The position numbers were made by a program, and so were the translations under genes. Shown here one piece after another: positions 1,380 through 25,814 of a DNA stretch of 64,000 nucleotides. Under the pieces are notes generated by a model. It saw nothing but the letters and a program-made list of their open reading frames with translations. It was not told where the DNA came from and did no database searches. This DNA comes from Escherichia phage SF. Location of the stretch: sequence record MH359124. One strand, given 5' to 3'. Positions within the stretch are counted from its first letter, which is position 1, and every line of letters starts with the position of its first letter.

Positions 1380-4300
1380 CTAATTTAACCTGTGGTGGAT
1401 TAATCGGGTCTCTAGGATTTCCCACGTTATCTAACAATCTTTCATTAACAAGCTCTCTAAATCTAGAGAACGTTGTACCTGATGCATCAAATAATGGGCT
1501 CATTGGCTTGCGTCGTTCGGACGGTAATTGTCCTTGGAAAATAGAATTATCATTTTCTTCGTCATAATTTGCAGGTAAAGGGTATTCGATACCGGCATAA
1601 GGACCGGCATCATAAATTACTTCACCTGTAACAGGATTGAATTCTACATTACCTTGAGGGTCTAAACGAGCGACGCGGTCTGCATATTCCGTAGGCAGTC
1701 CGGAATCCCACTTATAATTTTTATATTTATTAATAATAGTTTCAACATGTTTAAGCGTTAATCCTGTGTTAATAAACATTGTTAATAAGGTTATTGCAAT
1801 AAATCCAAATCCTACCGGATGTACAAAACGTAGTACGTCAGATTTCCAACGAGAGGATGGAAGATTTGACTTTATTTTCATGACGTAATAAGCTCTACCA
1901 CGATTAAAATAATCAATAGTGTTTTGGGCAAGTTCTTTACCTTTAATACCGCGAACTATTTCACCTTCAAAATCTGCTAGTCTTTCGGCTTTTACTTCTT
2001 GACCGACTAAAAGCCTACCTAAAAGGTTATGAATAGTCACAGTCCATTGTAATTTACCTTTAGAATAGCTTCTTTCTAAATATGTAACATTACATCTACC
2101 TGTAGCGGTGTATATAGTTTGTCCAACCAAATCTTCACTTATAGAATCAGATTGAATTATGATATCGTACTCTGTTCCAGCAGATGACTCAATTTCCACT
2201 TCAACGTCTTCGTTATAAAGAACTTTAAACAAAAACTTATACGACGCTTCAGTTCCTTTAGTAGAATAAAAATCGTAACTTCTGGACTCAAAGAACCTAG
2301 AAACTAGATCACGTTTCTCAGCATTCAAATAAATGTTCCGTTTATAAATTTCAGACCAAAGATATTCCCATGCGTGTTCTTCTCGTGGGTATTTATTTTT
2401 AATCAAATTCAATAAGTTATTATAATGAGTCCCGTATCCATCAGAAAGATATTGAATATACGCTTCACAAAATGCTTCAAAGTTTGTATTATCCAACAGA
2501 TAAGACTCTGGCATCATTGTAGTGAGTAATGGGCGTAAATCCGGGTCAGCTAGACCTGTTTCTTCAACAGGAACCCAAGAAGTTTCTTTTTCTTGGTTTT
2601 GTAATGAGGAGGTCAAAAATACGTTAGTGGGCTTCCAAATTATAGAAACATTATCTCTAACACGATAACTAAAATCGTAATATGAAATTATTTCACCTGA
2701 TGATTTATAAAACAACATACCAGATGCGTATTTTTTAAATCCAGTGAATTCTATATTCGGCATAACAATCTTACAATCACCATCATTCCAGTATTCATGA
2801 ACTTTACGATCAGGTGAAGTGCTAGGGTGGCTTTCCACTACCTTTGTGTAAAGCAAATCAGAATAAATCACTACCGCTCTATCAGAGTTATTAATCCAAG
2901 AACGTGTGCCTGATTTTCTAGAATAACTAAAGAAAGGTTCTGCATAATACTGCATAGGAGTTGGTGAAAAAGTTTCCCAATTACTTTCTTCGTTTGATGC
3001 GAAAATCATCATATGGTAATGTTTATCTGCGAGCCATTCTCTAGGATATTCATACTTAACTGCTTCTAAAAGTCCATACTTAGATTGCGTTTCTGGGTCG
3101 TCAACAATATCAGATTCTAAAAATTTAAAATTACTAGAGGAGATATAAAGCTCAACACCATCAGTAGACATATTGGTGAAAGCCGGTTCTATACGACGGC
3201 GTTCTTCTTCGGTATTACCAAATATCCTTTTAAATGTTCCAGCGTCATGGTCTAAAACGTATACACCTTTATCAACGGAATCCAAAATAGGCTTTGTTCT
3301 TGGGTCGTCATTAACGTTTTCGACTTCACCAATAATAAGAGCGAATATTCTTCCACCAACAGAATCCATTTTATAACAAACTGCTTTAGGGTTGCCTGTT
3401 ATTGTAAACGTCTCGGGTTCAAACAACCGTTCGGAATAGGTCGGAGATAATGGATCTGAATCAATAGGAGCGTTACTGGTTTTAACGAAGCGAACTTTAT
3501 CTCTGGCCGCAATATAAACATAGTCATCATTACAAGTAATAGCTTCTGCAATACGTGATACGTTTCCTGGTAATGACGCGTATGTACCGAAAATCTCTAC
3601 ATCAAAACCTAAATTTAATCGGTCCCCGATTTTAGCAAACGTTACATCTTGTGAACTGAAACGAACATCATTAGCAGACCAACGAATATCGGATGATTTA
3701 CGCCCGTAAAAAATCTTATCATAGCCGAGCAAATACGTCGTATATTCTGATTGGTAATATACGGTTCGTGAAAGTGGATATCCTACACGGTCATTAAGCA
3801 ATTTAACCGCTTTCCATGTTTGGCCTTTATCATTAGACACTTTTACAATAGGTTGGAATCTTTCAAAAAGGTAAAGAATTCCTTCAGATTCCATTAGATA
3901 TACTCGATTTATATCTTTACATACGTCCTGGATATGCCCCTGGATTTCATGATACTGATTTTCGCCAATTATAAAATTTCTAATCGATGACACATCGGTG
4001 TATGCAGGACTAAATTGGAACGACTCGCTCATCAGCGCTGCCATGATCGTGTCATTATTAAAATCAACGTAGTTGGTATTATTTTTTGTAAATTTTTCAG
4101 AAATAAACTCATTAGCTAATTGCATTTCAATCATATGTTGGAATGTATAAGCGTTTATTTCAAATGTTTCAAACTCTTCGGTGTATCTCCAATCAGACTG
4201 CTCAAATCCCTCCGCTGCTGTAGCCACACGCATCATATATGTTGTTAATGAATTTAAACCAGACTCAAAGAAATTGTTATCAGCGGTATATCCTAAATTA

Positions 4301-4470: not shown

Positions 4471-6437
4471 TGTGAAATAGGCTCCAAATCTATGGTTAAA
4501 TATTGCGGACGTAAGTCATTTTCAAATACAATTAACGACCCGTCTTTAGTAAAGATAACATCATCAGCTGGGTCTGAATAGAGTTCAATAGTTTGAACTT
4601 CAAACCTATCAGAAGTTAAATCAATTTTAGCTATATTCCAATAAATTGAATCAGCCGGATAATTTACTTCACCTATAGAGTAATATTTGTTTCTTCCGTC
4701 CTTAACATTAAGTTTATTAAAATCGTCACCAGTATATGGTTGAATATAAGCGTTTTCTATAACGTCGCCATCTGCAAACGGGCCAATAATAACTTGTCCA
4801 ATGCCGCGGTCATTTCTATCTGAACCTACAATGCGAACGTCGTATTTAATAGTAACTTCCGTTTCAGGGTCAACGCGTAAACTATCAAATGAAAACACGT
4901 TAGATTCTAATGTTCTATCTTTAATCTGGTTATTGTATTTAATACCTGTTTCAGGTGTTTTGTAGAAGTTCTGTACCTCGCGAACCATTTGAATAGTCGC
5001 AGACGAACCAATGATAGAAATATCTGCGTCATCGACATACGTTAGCATTTTAGATTTTGCGAATGACGAGTTAAAAATTTCCACGTCTTCAATATAATAA
5101 CGGTCGATTTTATTAATAATTTGGCCTTCTAACCATTGTTCAGATTCCTGTAATTTGTTCAATGCATACGTAACGCGAATATTCATTTTAATAAACAAAT
5201 AATCAGGAGAAATAACAACAGGAGTTATCGTCCCTAAGTTATACTCATTAAGATAATTTTTAATATCGTCTCGTTGGACGGAAGTCAAATATAACCCAGA
5301 CTTAGGTTTAGCAGCAATAAATGCGTACCCAGGCTTAGATGAATCCGTAAATGTCTGAACCGCTTGAATAATAGAACCAAATCGCTCAGAGACGAATGTG
5401 TCGTAATCAGTCGCGGTCACACATCGTTGTTGAGTTTCGCGTTTAATTGTACCTAATTCACGGATACGTTCAATATCTTCAGGGTCGCCGCCGCCATCCG
5501 CGCCAACGAAGTCAGGGTTATTACTTGGGTTTTCATTAATTCCAATAACCGTGATATTAGCTAATGTATCAGCATAAGAAAATCCTACTGCACCATTTGC
5601 TTCAGCACCATTAGTAGAAATATATTCAATTACGATTTTAGAACCCTGAACAGGTTTAAGGCCACCAATATAGTTAGATGTTAACGCACCTTCTGATGTG
5701 TTAATAGAGATTTCGCCTTCACCAAAATAAAATTCAGTGTTCCCATCAACTGTTTCACGCATATAATAGATTGTTGACGTAGAACCAGCGTGAACCATCG
5801 ACTTACGAGTCCAGTTAATCCATTCTGCTCCGTCAACATACAACTTAACCAAATTACGGTCAATATTCTTATCACGAATAATGATAGGTTTTAATCTATC
5901 AAATGTTAATTCAGTGCGAACAATACGTCCTTGAGCTAATCGAAGACGTGGAAAATATTGGTTATTTTTGTCTTTAACTACAATGACATCTTCAGTAGAA
6001 ACAAAGTTATACGGGTTAACAGAAGTATCTTTAGCGTATGCTAAGAAACGAGTGCCACGTGGAATGGTGATATAGTTTCTATTTAATGCATCCGTACATG
6101 TGAGCATAATTTCTGTTTGTGCTGCTGATTTAGATGAAGGCAGATATCCGTTATCTTGAGCCGCTTGTACAACAGAACTACGCAAGTTTGCAGTACGCAT
6201 AAAACTTTCATACACTGCACTATTACTGAACTGTTGGATGTAAAGAGTGTTATATGCTAAAAGGTCACACAATACGTTTAAACGTGAACCTTCAAAATCA
6301 TAATCAAGAAATTCATTCTGTCCGTTGAGCCATTCGATAATGTTCTGTTTGATTTCGGCAAATGTGCCCCCGATAAAAATCTCGGGAATAGCATTCGCTG
6401 TTCGGGTTAATTGATAATTTACAGGAGTGTTTGCCAT
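4467..6437 (-). CDS. 6: baseplate wedge protein gp6
   Basis: Start moved to internal Met (MANTPVNYQLTRTANAIPEIF, matches T4 gp6 N-terminus); 656 aa. Confidence 0.85.
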   Translation of the reverse strand: MANTPVNYQLTRTANAIPEIFIGGTFAEIKQNIIEWLNGQNEFLDYDFEGSRLNVLCDLLAYNTLYIQQFSNSAVYESFMRTANLRSSVVQAAQDNGYLPSSKSAAQTEIMLTCTDALNRNYITIPRGTRFLAYAKDTSVNPYNFVSTEDVIVVKDKNNQYFPRLRLAQGRIVRTELTFDRLKPIIIRDKNIDRNLVKLYVDGAEWINWTRKSMVHAGSTSTIYYMRETVDGNTEFYFGEGEISINTSEGALTSNYIGGLKPVQGSKIVIEYISTNGAEANGAVGFSYADTLANITVIGINENPSNNPDFVGADGGGDPEDIERIRELGTIKRETQQRCVTATDYDTFVSERFGSIIQAVQTFTDSSKPGYAFIAAKPKSGLYLTSVQRDDIKNYLNEYNLGTITPVVISPDYLFIKMNIRVTYALNKLQESEQWLEGQIINKIDRYYIEDVEIFNSSFAKSKMLTYVDDADISIIGSSATIQMVREVQNFYKTPETGIKYNNQIKDRTLESNVFSFDSLRVDPETEVTIKYDVRIVGSDRNDRGIGQVIIGPFADGDVIENAYIQPYTGDDFNKLNVKDGRNKYYSIGEVNYPADSIYWNIAKIDLTSDRFEVQTIELYSDPADDVIFTKDGSLIVFENDLRPQYLTIDLEPISQ

Positions 6438-6445
6438 TTTAATTC

Positions 6446-6739
6446 CTATTTTATAAAGACTTTTGACGAGGCCTGAGAAACAGTATCCCCGCATGAAATT
6501 GGGTCGGCCATTTGAACGGCCTTTTTACCGGTGACGTATACTTTAGATGTACGAGGTTCAGTAACACCTCCATGAGTCTCGTATGGTTTTTTAATTTCTG
6601 TATGAGGTGTTATTTGGTCTCCTGCCACAAGAACAGGAATACCGCCGGTGAACACTTTAGATTGGGAAGCATTTATTACAGTAGGAGGCCATGCTTCATG
6701 ACCTGATGTAACGCACTTGTCGTAACTTAAGCCAGACAT
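6446..6739 (-). CDS. 5.4: PAAR-repeat spike tip protein gp5.4
   Basis: Internal Met start [21 protein letters not shown]; 97 aa; matches T4 gp5.4. Confidence 0.8.
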
Positions 6740-6741
6740 TT

Positions 6742-7257
6742 TCACGGCCTCACATAAACATAGTTTCGTAATTGTTGAGCCCATTTGCTCCAATTTCCTA
6801 CTATAGTTTTTGTATAAACCTTAGTAAGAGTTTTTTGTACTGGAGCCGGTGGAGGTTCCGTACCAGAGTCACTTCTAGAACCGCCTGATGAACTTTCTTC
6901 TTGGTAATTATAAATCATTTCAACCGTATAACTAAACACTTTACGAAGATTCTGAGGAGCTCTCCACAAATATAACTGTGTGGATTCATCTTTTGGTAAA
7001 TCGTCCCATGAAGATGCGGTTTTAAAATCGTCATTTAATCGGTATTTCAATGCATCCGAAGAAAAGCTAAACACACTTTCATATGTTCCATATAAACGAT
7101 TACCATCTACCGTAATGCCTTGTGTCGGTTCATAATCTGTTATATTTATTGACACTAAAGTTTCGGTTGTTTCTAACTGTGGAGTAAAAAGGACGTCAAT
7201 AGACGCCCCTTCCATGTCTTCTCCTAAGTCGGTATTTAAAGGAAGTATTTGTGCCAT
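6742..7257 (-). CDS. 5.1: gp5.1-like baseplate-associated protein
   Basis: 171 aa ORF between gp5 and gp5.4 as in T4; name by position. Confidence 0.55.
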
Positions 7258-13500: not shown

Positions 13501-13519
13501 CAACCAAATGGAACCTAAA

Positions 13520-13783
13520 ATGAAAACTTTCAACGAATTCATCTCAGAATCGTCTGGTGTGAAAATTAACAAAGCGGTCAATCAGGTTATTGCTGATATT
13601 CTTAATTTGTATAACATTGACTTAACTCCGCATATCACGCTTGGTAACAAACGAAACTTTTTCATATTTGACACATCCGAACTTGATGAAAATCAGTTCA
13701 ATAACATTCAACGTTTTGCGAATGATAAAGGTCTTCGACACGAGCCTGGCGGCTATAAAAAATACGCAATATATTTGAAATAA
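13520..13783 (+). CDS. internal-protein-like protein (CTS variant MKTFNEFISE)
   Basis: Start at internal ATG; CTS-like N-terminus; 87 aa. Confidence 0.6.
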   Translation: MKTFNEFISESSGVKINKAVNQVIADILNLYNIDLTPHITLGNKRNFFIFDTSELDENQFNNIQRFANDKGLRHEPGGYKKYAIYLK

Positions 13784-17893: not shown

Positions 17894-18487
17894 ATGAACA
17901 CACTGAAGAAACTTGTTGAATTCATCCGCACTAAACTGGGTACTGCTATGGCTAAAAATCTAACTGTCGAAGAACAGTATAACGCAGCTGCAGATAAGTT
18001 GATTACCCAAATCAAAGAACTAAAAACGGCTTCTGTTAAATCTATTAATGAAGAAAAACGTATTCGCGAACTTGTTATTGAAAAGAATAAGCAAGCCGCT
18101 TCTAAGGAACGTGAAATTCGTAAGCTCCTGGCTGAAGGACAAGATGTTACCATGCATGCTAAGCTTGGTCTTCTGTATCGTCGAACTGCCGAACAACTTA
18201 ATACAAAAGCTGATGGGTATGCCGCTATGCGAATTGAAATTGCTCGTAAGGTGGTTGAACTTGACGACGCTCGTCAGAATCTGGCAATCAAACTCGAATA
18301 CATTCGTGAAACTCGAGCAGCTAATGCCCTTGGTATCTCTACGGCCGATGATGTAATTGAAATCGCTGCACTGACTAAGGTTGATATCGAAGACACTCTG
18401 ACTCGTGTTGAAACGTTCAATGGCACTCCAACCGGTGTCGAAACCACTTCTGCTGATGTACAAGAATATATTAACTCTTTGAAATAA
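17894..18487 (+). CDS. coiled-coil protein, possibly PspA/IM30-like
   Basis: 198 aa, heptad-rich, Lys/Glu-rich helices; family assignment tentative. Confidence 0.5.
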
Positions 18488-18536: not shown

Positions 18537-19133
18537 ATGCGAAACCAAAATAATGATATTGACTCGATGTTCGAAGAGTTCCGAAATAAGGTAAATCCAC
18601 CTACGTCTTTAGTTGATTCATTACGATATGTTGCAACTGGACGTAAATGGTACTGGTCGTCTTCTTATGAGACAACTGAATATGCAAATAACCGAAAATC
18701 TTTATTAGCCCCAGGTATTATGATTCATGATATCGGAGCTATTGCTAAACTAGTTGCAGACCATGATATTAGATTCACCGATTTCGTTGCTCCTACGTGG
18801 TCTGTTTGTTGTTTAAACACTGAATGGGAATATATCAGCGAACGCTCTGAAGATTATTATGGTTTTAGAGACAAGCTTTTAAGGTCTAACATGTTTTATA
18901 TTGATACAGAAGTTCTGGTCAATAATAAAAAATACTATTTCACTTTAATAGTCGATTCTGAAACTATGTATGAAGGCAAGCCTTTGCTTAAAAGAGTTGA
19001 TGCTTTAAGTGCTATTGATGCGCTTTATGAAACCATGGTTGTTAGTCCTAATTTCACTAACAATTTAATCCTTGAGCAATTTATTATGGAATGTAGAGAA
19101 TATGTCAAAGCCAACCCTATACATGCCAAGTAA
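18537..19133 (+). CDS. hypothetical protein with C-terminal FIMECR motif
   Basis: ATG after AAGGAG; MRNQNNDIDSMFEEF. Confidence 0.55.
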   Translation: MRNQNNDIDSMFEEFRNKVNPPTSLVDSLRYVATGRKWYWSSSYETTEYANNRKSLLAPGIMIHDIGAIAKLVADHDIRFTDFVAPTWSVCCLNTEWEYISERSEDYYGFRDKLLRSNMFYIDTEVLVNNKKYYFTLIVDSETMYEGKPLLKRVDALSAIDALYETMVVSPNFTNNLILEQFIMECREYVKANPIHAK

Positions 19134-19497
19134 GCCCTGGGCGTATGAATACAAGCGTAAATTAATCCCAAATGAAGTACTATTTGGCCCTATTTTAGCT
19201 TTAGCATTTTTAATCTTTATGATTATAGGAGCTGTTTTAGATTCTAGTGAAGTTATATCGTCTGATGCAGTGTTTTTACTTATTATAGTCGGGTCGTTTA
19301 TTGTACCATTTTTATTAATGCCTATTAACTGGGTAGGATATTGGCACCAAGGCCGTCATCACAGAGCCCGATTAAGAGAATGGAAAGTTCAGTGCGCAAA
19401 AGCCCAAGCTCAGTATGATGAAGCTGTTAAAAAGTACGAATATGAAGAAGCTATGGAATTCGTTAAGGAAATAAGATGCAAAAGCCTCAACTCTTAA
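19102..19497 (+). CDS. small membrane protein (2 TM helices)
   Basis: Start uncertain (ATG 19102 or 19123); LFGPILALAFLIFMIIGAVL and FLLIIVGSFIVPFLL. Confidence 0.5.
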   Translation: MSKPTLYMPSKPWAYEYKRKLIPNEVLFGPILALAFLIFMIIGAVLDSSEVISSDAVFLLIIVGSFIVPFLLMPINWVGYWHQGRHHRARLREWKVQCAKAQAQYDEAVKKYEYEEAMEFVKEIRCKSLNS

Positions 19498-19835
19498 CCG
19501 TATGGCCTTCTCTTGGTGAGAACATTCTAATTTTTATTATGAGTATTGGCGTGGGATTTGCCTTTGGATTAGTTGGATTTCTTATTGACGGCGTTGTGTT
19601 AGGATTTATAGGGAACACTGGTGGATTCACAGACCAATGGCAGGACTTACGGTATACCCAAGCCTTTGCATCCATCGCATCATTTTGTACTGTAGTCTAT
19701 TTTTACTATGATTTTATAAACCATAACAAGAAAAATAAAAAGGTTTACGCTTCTCAAATGATTAGTTATAATGAACTCCTAGCTAGACGTGAAAATGAAA
19801 CAATAGAAAACTTTATTAAGGAATGTAGAAAATGA
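19476..19835 (+). CDS. membrane protein with C-terminal ENFIKECRK tail
   Basis: 119 aa; hydrophobic segments; conserved C-terminal motif shared with 21982 and 22975 genes. Confidence 0.55.
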   Translation: MQKPQLLTVWPSLGENILIFIMSIGVGFAFGLVGFLIDGVVLGFIGNTGGFTDQWQDLRYTQAFASIASFCTVVYFYYDFINHNKKNKKVYASQMISYNELLARRENETIENFIKECRK

Positions 19836-20137
19836 GTAAGATTATTGAAATTAAAGTACCAGAGTTTAATGATGCCAAATCCGCTTCAGATGCAATTTAT
19901 AAACTTCTGAATCAAGCTGAACGTATCGAAGAAGAAGCAACAAAGATCGCAGACCAATATGCCGTATCATTTTCTGTAGGTGATTATGGTAGCGGTCGTA
20001 CTTATTATCCTAAGGGTGAAATCGTATCCCAGTGGATGAAAAATGAAATTGAAAATAATGGTGGCGATGTTAAGCGTGAAGGTAATGGTTACGTTATTAC
20101 TGAAGGTGCTTGGGTTTCGTCTTCTGCGTTGTGCTAA
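19832..20137 (+). CDS. small protein, tandem paralog A (C-terminus GAWVSSSALC)
   Basis: 101 aa; ATGA overlap with upstream stop. Confidence 0.55.
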   Translation: MSKIIEIKVPEFNDAKSASDAIYKLLNQAERIEEEATKIADQYAVSFSVGDYGSGRTYYPKGEIVSQWMKNEIENNGGDVKREGNGYVITEGAWVSSSALC

Positions 20138-20146
20138 GGAACCACT

Positions 20147-20419
20147 ATGTCTAAAGAACAAACCGAACTGGCTGAAGCCGTAGCAAAAATCTATGCAGCT
20201 ATTGAGGCTGCCAAAGAAATTGCTGATAAACAAAACACAACATTCGACTTGTATCCAGCTTATGGTATGGGTGGAACATATCATTCACCCGGACAGCTTA
20301 AAGCCGATCTTGAACGTTGTACAAAAAACGGCTATGCTGAATGGGCTGACGTTTACCAATACGACTACAACCTGAGCCTCGAAACTGGTGGTTGGATCGC
20401 ATCTTCTCACACTTGCTAA
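20147..20419 (+). CDS. small protein, tandem paralog B (C-terminus GGWIASSHTC)
   Basis: 90 aa; junction TGCTAAGGAACCACTATGTCT conserved with next paralog. Confidence 0.55.
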   Translation: MSKEQTELAEAVAKIYAAIEAAKEIADKQNTTFDLYPAYGMGGTYHSPGQLKADLERCTKNGYAEWADVYQYDYNLSLETGGWIASSHTC

Positions 20420-20428
20420 GGAAACCAT

Positions 20429-20626
20429 ATGTCTCGTGAATTAGATTGTGCTGTACGTACTGCAGTAGCTGCCCTGGAAAACCTGTTCCAAATTGCAACA
20501 GAAGAACGCGAAGAAGTTACATTATGGATTGAAGATAACGCAGGTCTGAATCTCCAGGACGCGATCTCATTATCCCACAATAGTATCACTGTTCAAGGCT
20601 GGGTATCGTCTAGTTATTCTTGCTAA
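20429..20626 (+). CDS. small protein, tandem paralog C (C-terminus QGWVSSSYSC)
   Basis: 65 aa. Confidence 0.55.
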   Translation: MSRELDCAVRTAVAALENLFQIATEEREEVTLWIEDNAGLNLQDAISLSHNSITVQGWVSSSYSC

Positions 20627-20628
20627 AA

Positions 20629-20672
20629 CAGTTTACAACAAGATAGGGCTATGTTATAGTAGTCCTATCAAA
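20629..20672 (+). promoter_or_regulatory. PeSL-like promoter (GTTTAC; TATAGT inside GATAGGGCTA / TAGTCCTATC)
   Basis: caGTTTACaacaaGATAGGGCTAtgtTATAGTAGTCCTATCaaa. Confidence 0.6.
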
Positions 20673-20688
20673 TTAAATGGAGTCCACA

Positions 20689-20928
20689 ATGATTTATTAC
20701 GAAAGTATTGGAACCGAAGTGGTTGCTAAAACCATTACTCGTGAAAAGTTTGCAAAGATATTCGATATGCGTTATAAAAAATCTGAACACAAAGGCATTC
20801 GATTCGAAGATGCGCACTGTACAATTTGCCCTTATAATGAAGACATAAATGGTACAATCGTTCCATTGGTAGAGGCTTCACATGATGACCTCTGGGATGA
20901 ATATAATATCGCATGTCGCGAAATTTAA
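20689..20928 (+). CDS. hypothetical protein
   Basis: ATG after GGAG; MIYYESIGTEVVAK. Confidence 0.5.
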   Translation: MIYYESIGTEVVAKTITREKFAKIFDMRYKKSEHKGIRFEDAHCTICPYNEDINGTIVPLVEASHDDLWDEYNIACREI

Positions 20929-20953
20929 GTAATCTAAATTCGAGGAAATTATT

Positions 20954-21910
20954 ATGATGTTAGTTATTGGTTCTCGTGCACTTCACTATCATGGACTTAT
21001 TGATTCTAATGCTATCAAAAATAGTGACTGGGACTTTATTGCAGACCAAGGTTCTTGGAATGCATTCAAAAATCAAATGATGGGTGTATATGTTCATCAA
21101 GATAACCCTGATGTCCAAGTTTTCAAATGCTTCCATAATGGACGCGAAACTCATTTTGAAGCATATATTGTTCCGGCAATCACTAATGTCCGTGAATTAG
21201 TCGGTGAACTCACTCCTGAAGATTTCACATCTTCTTACGACCTTTTAAAATACGCCAAGAAAAATTTGACCAAAGACCGTTTGAACGGGTTTTACTGGGC
21301 AACTCCTGAGATATGTCTTGCAATTAAGATGTCTCATCGTTTCAAGAAAAATAATCCATTCTTTTTAAAGACTATGAACCATATTCAGTATCTTCGTGGT
21401 AAAGGTGTTACACTGAACGACGAACTTACTGAAATTATGCTGAAACGCCAGAAAGAAACCTTGAACTATGCTCACCCAGTTCTTGACACTTCTAAAAGTG
21501 CGTTCTTTAAAGATGACATCTATACATATGACCATGATACTATTCATGAAGCCATTGCACTAACAGACCGCCCGGCTTATACATTTTACATGAAAGATGG
21601 TTCTGAAGTCATGACCTCACGCGAGAAGTTTGAATCATTACCAGAAATGGTAAAATTGGCTGGTGTATACGAAGAATCATGTGTACTAGCATTAGAACGT
21701 TCTCAGATTCCTAACGACTTTAAAATTAACCCTGAAGCCAGTTTTATGATGGCATTGGAAAAAGTCTGTACAAGCATCACCTCTGGTTGGTTCCGTGAGT
21801 ATGCCTGGGAAAACTATAGCAAAGTAGTAAGTATGTACCAAAGCTTAGGACATGATGATTACGTCAAACGTTTCAAACAAAATTTCCATATGGTAAAACC
21901 TTTCAAATAA
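20954..21910 (+). CDS. hypothetical protein, possible nucleotidyltransferase-fold N-terminus
   Basis: 318 aa; N-terminal LVIGSRALHYHG...SDWDF loosely resembles GS...DxD NTase motif. Confidence 0.55.
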   Translation: MMLVIGSRALHYHGLIDSNAIKNSDWDFIADQGSWNAFKNQMMGVYVHQDNPDVQVFKCFHNGRETHFEAYIVPAITNVRELVGELTPEDFTSSYDLLKYAKKNLTKDRLNGFYWATPEICLAIKMSHRFKKNNPFFLKTMNHIQYLRGKGVTLNDELTEIMLKRQKETLNYAHPVLDTSKSAFFKDDIYTYDHDTIHEAIALTDRPAYTFYMKDGSEVMTSREKFESLPEMVKLAGVYEESCVLALERSQIPNDFKINPEASFMMALEKVCTSITSGWFREYAWENYSKVVSMYQSLGHDDYVKRFKQNFHMVKPFK

Positions 21911-21920
21911 CTTCACAAAA

Positions 21921-21966
21921 CTGTTTACATAATTATAGGGACTATGTTATAGTAGTCCTATTAAAA
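21921..21966 (+). promoter_or_regulatory. PeSL-like promoter (GTTTAC; TATAGT inside ATAGGGACTA / TAGTCCTAT)
   Basis: ctGTTTACataattATAGGGACTAtgtTATAGTAGTCCTATtaaaac. Confidence 0.6.
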
Positions 21967-21981
21967 CATGAGGAGAATATT

Positions 21982-22287
21982 ATGAAATTAACAGAAACCA
22001 ATCGAATCGGTCTTTTAACAATATTTGCATCACCTTTTTACGCAGCTCTTTCTGTTGCAGTATTACAAAAGGCCTACGATATGGATGGAGTTACTGGTTT
22101 TGTATTCTTATCGCCGTTTTTGCTATTCGTTGGAGCATTGTTATTATACGCCACGACTAGTTTCGACCATAATGTCTGGGTCAATTATAAATGTAAATTG
22201 TCTGAAGAAGAACACGCAGAAGCTCGTAAAAAAGCTATTGAATCTACCAATCTAGAAAATTTCATTAAAGAATGTCGAGGAAAATAA
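21982..22287 (+). CDS. membrane protein with C-terminal ENFIKECRGK tail
   Basis: 101 aa; 2 hydrophobic helices. Confidence 0.55.
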   Translation: MKLTETNRIGLLTIFASPFYAALSVAVLQKAYDMDGVTGFVFLSPFLLFVGALLLYATTSFDHNVWVNYKCKLSEEEHAEARKKAIESTNLENFIKECRGK

Positions 22288-22288
22288 T

Positions 22289-22975
22289 ATGAATAGTTCT
22301 AAAGTGTTTAATAGTCAAGCTCGTGCAGTAGGTGGTTTTGCTCATGCGATTAAAAACGAGCAGATTAAAAACGAGCCTATGTTCTTTAACTGCGATTTGA
22401 ATTTTGCTTTTGATAATGGCGGTCCAATTACTCGTAGCTTTATCCAAAATCTTCCTGACGATTGGAAAGACTCGGATGTAGTATTTGATTCACGAGTCCA
22501 CATGCTGATGCCTGGTTGGTATCCTGCTATTCCTGGATATCACCATGATGATGTTCCTCGCCCTGATATTCCAGTTGGTCAACACTTTATTACTGCAGGA
22601 CAACCTGATTATGACAATCCTCGCTATTTGTCTGAACATATTCTTGGTCTTGTTAACGCTGATGTGTGTCCTACTCATTTTGCAACAGGAGCTGCAGAGT
22701 TCAGTCAGATTCCTGATGGCGAACTTATCTATCGCCAGTGGCACAAAGAAGTCCTCGAAAAAATTGAAAAAGGCGAACTAGAGAAATGGGAAGCTCCAGA
22801 TCGTACTCTTCTTCAGTTTGATTGGCAAACATGGCACACTGGTTCTCGTGCAATTAGTAATGGATGGCGTTGGTTCGGACGTGTATCTCGTAATACAGGC
22901 CGAGTTAAAAAGATTACCAATGAAATTCGTGTCAATGCTCAAGTTTATCTGGAATTCCCTATGGAAGGCTGGTAA
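22289..22975 (+). CDS. hypothetical protein, possible metal-dependent oxygenase-like (HHDD ... H ... R)
   Basis: 228 aa; YHHDD then CPTHF about 57 aa later then Arg; assignment speculative. Confidence 0.5.
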   Translation: MNSSKVFNSQARAVGGFAHAIKNEQIKNEPMFFNCDLNFAFDNGGPITRSFIQNLPDDWKDSDVVFDSRVHMLMPGWYPAIPGYHHDDVPRPDIPVGQHFITAGQPDYDNPRYLSEHILGLVNADVCPTHFATGAAEFSQIPDGELIYRQWHKEVLEKIEKGELEKWEAPDRTLLQFDWQTWHTGSRAISNGWRWFGRVSRNTGRVKKITNEIRVNAQVYLEFPMEGW

Positions 22976-23466
22976 TGATACATAAAATTCACTGGACAAA
23001 CATGGACGATGGCGACGAAGGTATTTCATATTATTCTATAGATTGGACAGGATGTCCATCCTACTTAGTGAAACATATTTGCCAAGAATTTAAAATCGAC
23101 CAGCCAGCAGGTATTATCGTGAACAGATACATTAATGGATATCAACCTATCGATGAAGTAATACGAACAACTCAAGCTGAGCTTGAAAGGTTTTTCAATA
23201 AGTGTCAATGGATAACAGGATGGATTATATTTGTACCGTCTATATGGTTTTTCAGTACTAAGGTGAGTTCTTTCGGTTTTGTTGATATTATTGCTATCTT
23301 ATTAGCATCTAGTATCATAAGTGTTGTTGGTGGCATCATTGGCGGCGGTACCGCCGCCATCATTATTAATCTTATTAAAAGTAGTTTACAAGAACATAAA
23401 GACAAGATAAAGGCCAAGAATAATGAAGTTGAACGTTTTATTACCGAATGCAGGAATTTGAGATGA
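22975..23466 (+). CDS. membrane protein with C-terminal ERFITECRNLR tail
   Basis: 163 aa; C-terminal hydrophobic and Gly-rich segment. Confidence 0.55.
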   Translation: MIHKIHWTNMDDGDEGISYYSIDWTGCPSYLVKHICQEFKIDQPAGIIVNRYINGYQPIDEVIRTTQAELERFFNKCQWITGWIIFVPSIWFFSTKVSSFGFVDIIAILLASSIISVVGGIIGGGTAAIIINLIKSSLQEHKDKIKAKNNEVERFITECRNLR

Positions 23467-25511: not shown

Positions 25512-25814
25512 ATGAAAACATATCAAGAATTTATTACCGAAGCGCGAGTGAGTGCAGGTAAATTAGAAGCCGCTATAAATAAAAAGGCCCATTCATTTCA
25601 CGATTTGTCCGATAAAGACCGTAAGAAACTTGTAAGCCTTTATATTGACAAAGAGCGTATTCTCGCTCTTCCTGGCGCTAATGAAGGTAAACAGGCCAAG
25701 CCTTTGAATGCTGTCGAAAAGAAAATTGATAACTTTGCTTCTAAATTCGGTATGTCTATGGATGACCTTCAGCAAGCGGCTATCGAAGCAGCTAAAGTAA
25801 TTAAAGGTAAATAA
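25512..25814 (+). CDS. ipII: internal protein II-like (CTS MKTYQEFITEA)
   Basis: 100 aa; N-terminal CTS; resembles recalled T4 IPII; next to denV as in T4. Confidence 0.65.
   Translation: MKTYQEFITEARVSAGKLEAAINKKAHSFHDLSDKDRKKLVSLYIDKERILALPGANEGKQAKPLNAVEKKIDNFASKFGMSMDDLQQAAIEAAKVIKGK

Follow-up and report, generated by a model that had tools for sequence, protein, structure and literature searches.

A C-terminal FIxECR motif shared by e.x-block proteins of T4-type phages and its linkage to a PspA/IM30-like e.6 gene

Introduction

PspA-family proteins with adjacent small membrane partners include PspB/PspC-PspA of Escherichia coli, LiaI-LiaH of Bacillus subtilis and PspM-PspA of mycobacteria (PMC11237479). 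In Vipp1/ESCRT-III, the C-terminal helix α5 contacting the tip of the hairpin ('Interface 1') is essential for polymerisation (PMC8281802). A different kind of element, the promoter-early stem-loop (PeSL), has been described as a mobile regulatory cassette of T4-type phages (Arbiol et al. 2010, PMC2839356; Comeau et al. 2014, PMC4122927). Here we report on a 64,000-nucleotide stretch of Escherichia phage SF (MH359124), called the window throughout, which belongs to a Mosigvirus, that is, an RB69-like T-even phage. Between positions 18537 and 23466, within the region that corresponds to the T4 "e.x" block, five genes encode proteins with a common C-terminal tail of the type FIxECR, and they lie downstream of e.6, a gene for a PspA/IM30-like protein. 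The original prediction, made from the sequence of the window, had interpreted this tail as a conserved DNA cassette at gene junctions. We found that it is a short protein motif under amino-acid-level selection and not a DNA cassette. On balance, the tail probably forms a helix face that serves dissimilar, e.6-linked proteins as a common docking helix for the PspA-like e.6.

As in the PspA systems, a PspA/IM30-like gene at this locus adjoins genes for small membrane proteins with one or two transmembrane (TM) segments and predicted cytoplasmic helical ends. The phage partners differ in lacking sequence similarity to PspB, PspC and LiaI: Pfam searches with the five tail proteins gave nothing above the curated cut-offs, and none of the five matches PspB, PspC or LiaI. 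They also differ in number (three to six per genome), in including soluble proteins, in having one explicit common C-terminal motif, and in being encoded by lytic phages. Judged from this comparison, the association of tails with e.6 is likely a variant of the PspA-type partner system, with docking as its presumed basis. The MIM helices of ESCRT-III, which bind MIT domains, offer a further likeness in that a short amphipathic C-terminal helix acts as a common plug for several proteins of one membrane-remodelling system. This resemblance is one of principle only, as a position-specific scoring matrix (PSSM) of the tails misses the C-terminal helix of e.6, and no MIT-like partner was found. With PeSLs the tails have in common that short sequences are repeated at gene boundaries in a hyperplastic region and have been proposed to serve modular shuffling, and one tail-to-tail deletion (of e.2) is seen. 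PeSLs, however, are intergenic, non-coding combinations of promoter and hairpin that are conserved as DNA, whereas the tails belong to coding sequence, keep their amino acids while synonymous codons change freely, and contain neither promoter nor hairpin. A literature search, incomplete in its coverage, found no report on the functions of the e.x genes, on the tail motif or on a PspA-like protein in T4-type phages.

Results and Discussion

Five genes in the window encode the tail

All five tails of the original prediction are present in the sequence, on the plus strand. The e.5 homologue (18537..19133; 198 aa, soluble; phrog_2607) has EQFIMECR at 19074-19097, 11 residues before its stop codon; it is 48% identical to e.5 of T4, with the motif invariant. 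The e.4 homologue (19102..19497; 131 aa, two TM segments) carries the variant EFVKEIR at 19456-19476, followed by a Cys codon at 19477-19479. The e.3 homologue (19476..19835; 119 aa, a membrane protein; phrog_2330) ends in ENFIKECRK (motif at 19806-19829), and its stop codon overlaps the next ATG (ATGA). A protein of 101 aa with two TM segments (21982..22287; phrog_9798), matched in Mosigvirus records only, ends in ENFIKECRGK (motif at 22255-22278). The e.2 homologue (22975..23466; 163 aa; phrog_2203), which consists of a soluble N-terminal part, two TM segments and the tail, ends in ERFITECRNLR (motif at 23431-23454) and is homologous to the intact 162-aa e.2 of other Tequatroviruses. The PHROG families of these five proteins are of unknown function. 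One tail had been assigned to 19095-19125, which is the e.5/e.4 junction; the tail in question, EFVKEIRCK, actually lies at 19456-19482.

The motif is specific to these genes. A six-frame translation of the whole 64 kb contained exactly five matches to F[IV].E[CI]R, all of them in these genes, within the open reading frames (ORFs) and near the C-terminus. Residue frequencies predict 0.23 matches, and 40 first-order Markov simulations gave a mean of 0.225 and a maximum of 2. When the looser pattern [FW][IVL]..C[RK] was sought in the last 26 residues of the 196 ORFs of at least 50 aa on both strands, only four of the same genes were recovered. The fifth, e.4, falls outside this pattern with its variant FVKEIR. 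The Cys codon that follows is dictated by the ATG of e.3, which overlaps it (AGA TGC); the motif of e.4 therefore aligns as FVKEIR, with Ile at +4 when the Phe is numbered 0.

The motif does run into the next start codon, as had been noted: the distance from the Arg codon to the next ATG is -1, 2, 4, 8 and 10 nt in the five genes, and stop and start codons overlap at two junctions. This contact arises only because T4-type genes are packed end to end. At the e.2 junction, an ATG formed by the tail Glu-Cys codons (GA-ATG-C; window 23448-23466, position 3491 of the T4 reference) is in frame with the downstream gene. The T4 nudE gene is annotated from this tail-internal ATG (MQEIKMKT...), and a start five codons later, overlapping the stop codon (ATGA), seems likelier.

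The tail is conserved as protein and not as DNA

According to the original prediction, the conservation resides at the DNA junction, which would act as a recombination and/or translational-coupling linker, conserved in nucleotides, that lets modules be exchanged. Nucleotide alignment of the junctions contradicted this, as tail similarity did not exceed the expectation from amino acids and codon usage. The mean pairwise nucleotide identity of the four canonical tails was 0.743, whereas a resampling of synonymous codons according to the codon usage of the window predicted 0.734±0.03 (P=0.34). The ENFIKECR sequences of e.3 and the 101-aa gene are identical as protein and differ in four of eight codons, all synonymously. 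Relatives gave the same picture, in six genera and in 108 distinct tail contexts from 36 related loci. All six Arg codons were used (AGA 32, CGT 29, AGG 17, CGA 11, CGC 10 and CGG 2), Cys was encoded by TGT and TGC in 54 contexts each, and Phe by TTT in 71 and TTC in 31. The internal positions +2 and +3 are free to vary at the protein and the DNA level alike, and more than 20 different codons occur at each. Spacing is likewise variable, with the motif 0-15 residues from the stop codon and 1-70 nt from the next ATG.

Searches for DNA-level features at the tails pointed in the same direction. Only one pair of tails, those of e.5 and e.3, was reported by a repeat finder as a DNA repeat (20 of 22 nt identical), and it stands out no more than many chance repeats in the vicinity. 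No local inverted repeats were found at the tails, and the early-promoter pattern TTTACW-N17-TAYWAT is absent from all of them, its occurrences being at 20631 and 21923. A DNA cassette thus appears highly improbable, even with this repeat, the overlapping stop and start codons, and the deletion and codon-bias data described further below, all of which can be cited for it. The case shows that repeated coding sequence at the ends of genes may be taken for such a cassette, and that it may nonetheless give rise to microhomology deletions, as happened with e.2 in T2.

Consensus and distribution of the motif in related phages

The tail motif proved much more general than the original prediction had seen. 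In Tequatrovirus it is found on four genes: e.5 (FVKECR), e.4 (FVKESRC), e.3 (FV[IS]DCR) and intact e.2 (FITECR). Three to six tail genes each were found in Dhakavirus, Kanagawavirus, Moonvirus, a Klebsiella phage, Yersinia phage fHe-Yen9-01 and metagenomic relatives, where the carriers include small soluble proteins of 92-113 aa. An alignment of 29 proteins from six genera showed a hydrophobic residue at -3, Glu at -2, Phe or Trp at 0 (100%), Ile, Val or Leu at +1 (100%), Cys at +4 (24/29) and Arg or Lys at +5 (100%). The consensus can be written as Φ(-3)-E-x-[F/W](0)-[I/V/L](+1)-x-x-[C, sometimes I/M/V/L/A/T](+4)-[R/K](+5). The conserved positions are predicted to lie on the same side of an amphipathic helix, which is at the C-terminus or close to it. 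In an AlphaFold2 model of e.5, which is of low confidence (mean predicted local distance difference test, pLDDT, 64.5), the motif falls within a C-terminal helix at residues 177-192; a Foldseek search with the same model gave nothing meaningful on the fold of e.5.

The carriers comprise the soluble e.5 type, the e.4/e.3 type with two TM segments, the e.2 type and the small soluble proteins. Membrane carriers have one or two predicted TM segments followed by a Lys/Arg-rich segment, and the tail comes about 25-45 residues after the last TM segment. Given this basic segment and the positive-inside rule, the tails are predicted to be cytoplasmic. Two other roles for the motif were considered and rejected. 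A metal-binding or disulfide role of the Cys does not agree with the predicted cytoplasmic location, nor with the residues that can stand in its place, which are I/S/M/V in some proteins of enterobacterial phages and L/M/V/A/T/S in the distant lineages. A site for the gp21 prohead protease (IxE) does not agree with the Glu at +3, which is unconserved outside three genera.

The carriers had been called otherwise unrelated, and for most of them this is accurate. After the tails were trimmed, BLASTP detected only the pair e.3-e.4, which are weakly similar (E 1e-3), and all other family pairs had E>0.05. In addition, the 101-aa protein weakly matched phrog_2203, the profile of the e.2 family, over the C-terminal half of that profile (E 0.0017). 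Together with the tandem arrangement of the genes and the duplicated e.2-like pairs with near-identical tails in Kanagawavirus and a Klebsiella phage, these similarities could mean that the tail is a relic of common descent, in which diverged tandem duplicates kept the helix for an intramolecular or self-association role and have no shared partner. We consider this improbable. Outside the motif, no similarity could be detected between the membrane families and either the soluble e.5-type or the small soluble families. Moreover, the motif is the only segment conserved across genera, the rest having diverged beyond recognition, which argues for a function specific to the motif.

Linkage of tails to e.6

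We retrieved 36 IMG/VR loci with an e.6 profile and compared plus-strand ORFs within 8 kb downstream of e.6 with ORFs upstream of it. Downstream, 123 of 750 ORFs had the strict motif within their final 26 residues; upstream, none of 654 did. In 35 of the 36 loci, Aeromonas phages included, a tail is found on an ORF that starts within about 400 nt of the end of e.6. Tail genes adjoin e.6 directly downstream in nearly every lineage examined and directly upstream in one distant lineage. In a Slopekvirus, e.6 has been relocated and lies between nrdD and nrdG, yet MEKFIHSCKK is found on the gene that follows it; that e.6 and a motif gene were kept as a pair through this relocation also argues against the tail being a mere relic of common descent. 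In phage RB49, e.6 and the tails are missing together: neither was found among 310 ORFs in the first 75 kb, which include the syntenic region, the remaining 89 kb lying outside the scan. A related-locus search with e.5 as query recovered six loci.

In divergent e.6 lineages, neighbouring small or multi-TM proteins have variant endings with the same spacing and without the Cys. These are F[AT][KR]x[LMV]K in locus L018, I[LVI]xx[AT][RK] on four consecutive genes in L058, and IIxx[AS][RK] on two multi-TM proteins in L059. Such lineage-specific variants suggest co-evolution of the proposed hub, e.6, and the tails.

Identity of e.6

The conserved anchor gene of the cluster, e.6 (17894..18487, plus strand), encodes 197 aa with about 88% identity to T4 e.6 and is found in about 1100 phage records. 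A PDB sequence search with this protein gave no direct hit. Its AlphaFold2 model (pLDDT 78) consists of an N-terminal helix, a long hairpin (25-80 and 86-145) and two short C-terminal helices, a layout that agrees with the PspA/IM30 pattern of α0, a long α1/α2-3 hairpin, and then α4 and α5. The top eight matches of a Foldseek search of this model against the PDB were all Vipp1/PspA (best E 7.6e-4, TM-scores 0.47-0.55). An exhaustive profile search yielded 45 representatives of the e.6 family. One member, P0071 (E 3e-20 to the e.6 profile), matched PF04012 PspA_IM30 with 35.1 bits, above the gathering score of 33.9 (E 1.4e-8). With profile A4, built from 33 sequences, Vipp1/PspA made up eight of the top nine PDB sequences (E 1.2e-4 to 3e-3), and the alignment was colinear from the N-terminus (positions 1-146 against 1-147). 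We therefore assign e.6, with moderate to good confidence, to the PspA/IM30 (Vipp1) family of the ESCRT-III superfamily.

A possible docking helix for e.6

In the arrangement that we propose, e.6 would be a hub, and the tails would be a common docking helix through which adaptor proteins bind the e.6 polymer. Early in infection, the adaptors could thereby recruit e.6 to the inner membrane or regulate it there, on the cytoplasmic side, which would resemble PspB/C-PspA or LiaI-LiaH. The proposal is in keeping with the synonymous turnover at every conserved position, the helical periodicity, the dissimilarity of the carriers, the linkage to e.6 and the PspA/IM30-like nature of e.6.

Several points weigh against this proposal. 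The genomic linkage would be equally expected from simple co-inheritance of a tandem gene cluster, and the variant tails of L018, L058 and L059 were recognised post hoc. A Pfam search with the e.6 of the window gave no hit, so that a direct match to PspA is missing. Mimicry of helix α5 found no sequence support, as a PSSM of 76 tails scored the C-terminus of e.6 itself at -4.8. The joint absence of e.6 and tails in RB49 holds for the 75 kb that were scanned.

The motif might instead be a docking or sorting signal for a target other than e.6, either a host factor (protease, chaperone or membrane machinery) or a membrane surface. An amphipathic helix with a basic residue at +5, on tails predicted to be cytoplasmic and near the membrane, would suit such a role, and binding of e.6 by the tails is itself something we infer. 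A host-directed signal, however, would require neither a strict linkage to e.6 nor a change along with distant e.6 lineages, and soluble proteins also carry the motif. Such a target seems unlikely to us, though it deserves to be kept in mind.

If the tails do dock to e.6, five orphan genes would come under one hypothesis, that of a phage-encoded membrane-stress or membrane-remodelling module with motif-tagged adaptors. More speculatively, T-even phages including T4 may encode their own PspA/Vipp1 (e.6) along with variable adaptors (e.5, e.4, e.3, e.2 and lineage-specific extras) that would plug in via one C-terminal helix, and the two together might remodel or protect the host inner membrane; we put this wider idea forward only as a tentative possibility. 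T4 is the best-studied phage, and its orphan genes e.2 to e.6 are linked here through one motif and a PspA/IM30-like e.6.

Residual DNA-level effects at the tails

The adjacency of tail and start codon does add a secondary bias towards AGR Arg codons and occasionally provides microhomology for deletions. Within Tequatrovirus, some phages have e.2 (T4 type), and others lack precisely this gene (T2, PST, ZN18 and others); it is absent in 38 of the best 60 records. The deletion crossover lies inside sequence common to the tail junctions of e.3 and e.2 (TGCAGGAAA..TTAAA..ATGA), so that within the shared TGCAGGAAA the tail of e.3 passes into the junction of e.2 and nudE. The loss of e.2 is one microhomology deletion between two tails. 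To this extent the proposal of a recombination linker for module shuffling has a basis. In Mosigvirus, however, the 101-aa gene and the e.2-type gene each occur in 148 records of this type, and with these equal counts no tail-to-tail deletion is evident there; the one indel examined is bracketed by promoter repeats and not by tails.

These promoter repeats are two near-identical early-promoter-like elements of the PeSL type, at 20625..20672 and 21918..21965 on the plus strand, the first of which is supported by the direct repeats D7/D13. Both have the form GTTTACA-N17-TATAGT, and each overlaps an inverted repeat, ATAGGG[A]C...GTCCTAT. Phage PNJ-9 has an extra ORF of 66 aa at the position of the second copy, and this ORF stands between two such elements (positions 6414-6753 of locus L004), not between tails, an arrangement that matches the PeSL model of shuffling. 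PeSL-type elements, which are no part of the motif, are the kind of DNA cassette that is tied to gene shuffling in this region.

T4 gene clusters have overlapping stop and start codons (ATGA) and Shine-Dalgarno sequences embedded in coding sequence, and the tails conform to this organisation in that they touch the next start codon or overlap with it. Of 101 tails, 49 have AGR as the Arg codon, a codon type that makes up 21% in genome usage. AGR is commoner near the next ATG, with 36/62 when the ATG is within 14 nt and 13/39 otherwise (P=0.024, from counts that are not phylogenetically independent). The bias fits an overlap with the Shine-Dalgarno sequence of the downstream gene. Such an organisation explains the codon bias but not the conservation of F, I/V, C and R across genera.

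In the T4 reference (NC_000866, locus L003, 3492-3961, minus strand), the annotated e.2 of 102 aa is what a frameshift has left of the gene. Beyond it the coding sequence runs on in other frames up to nudE, with the tail NNFITECRKLK included, and T4T annotates e.2a/e.2b. An e.2-less Tequatrovirus, IMGVR_UViG_2974787500 (loci L011/L023, 7986-8601), which matches Yersinia phage ZN18, has e.5 split into ORFs of 145 and 92 aa. In some lineages the e.x genes seem prone to decay.

Gene order and neighbouring genes

Comparison with annotated T4 and other relatives gave the gene order of the region, whose 5.2 kb are 96-97% identical to Mosigvirus phages (PHB12, HX01). The order is tRNA genes, e.8/e.7-type genes, e.6, e.5, e.4, e.3, a block absent from T4, the e.2 homologue, a 78-aa gene, nudE and the lysozyme gene e (24170). 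The block absent from T4 (19832-22975) holds three small paralogues, an 83-aa gene, a 318-aa DUF7275/DUF7277 gene, the 101-aa membrane protein gene and a 228-aa gene.

When 16738 11-mers were ranked against the tail PSSM, two N-termini, MKTYQEFITEAR and ..KTFNEFISESS, came 10th and 11th, the former with FITEAR against FITECR. Their genes lie at 25512-25814 and 13508-13783 of the window, and the likeness may be a coincidence. The MKTYQEFITEAR N-terminus presumably resembles the capsid-targeting sequence of T4 internal proteins.

The three tandem small paralogues (19832-20626; 101, 90 and 65 aa) all end in GW(V/I)SSSxxC, which constitutes a second shared C-terminal motif, distinct from FIxECR. 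Up to five genes of this type were found in other genera, with endings such as WVSSSMEC, WQSSSYSC and WYSSSMQNC. The 228-aa protein (22289-22975) is unusually widespread. Identity is 75-82% to its counterparts in phages of Aeromonas, Klebsiella and Erwinia and 68% in a Stenotrophomonas phage; in phages of Mycobacterium and Gordonia it falls to about 29%, and one record there labels the protein an oxidoreductase. Its gene contains a perfect 14-nt repeat, GATTAAAAACGAGC, in two copies with one base between them (22348-22376).

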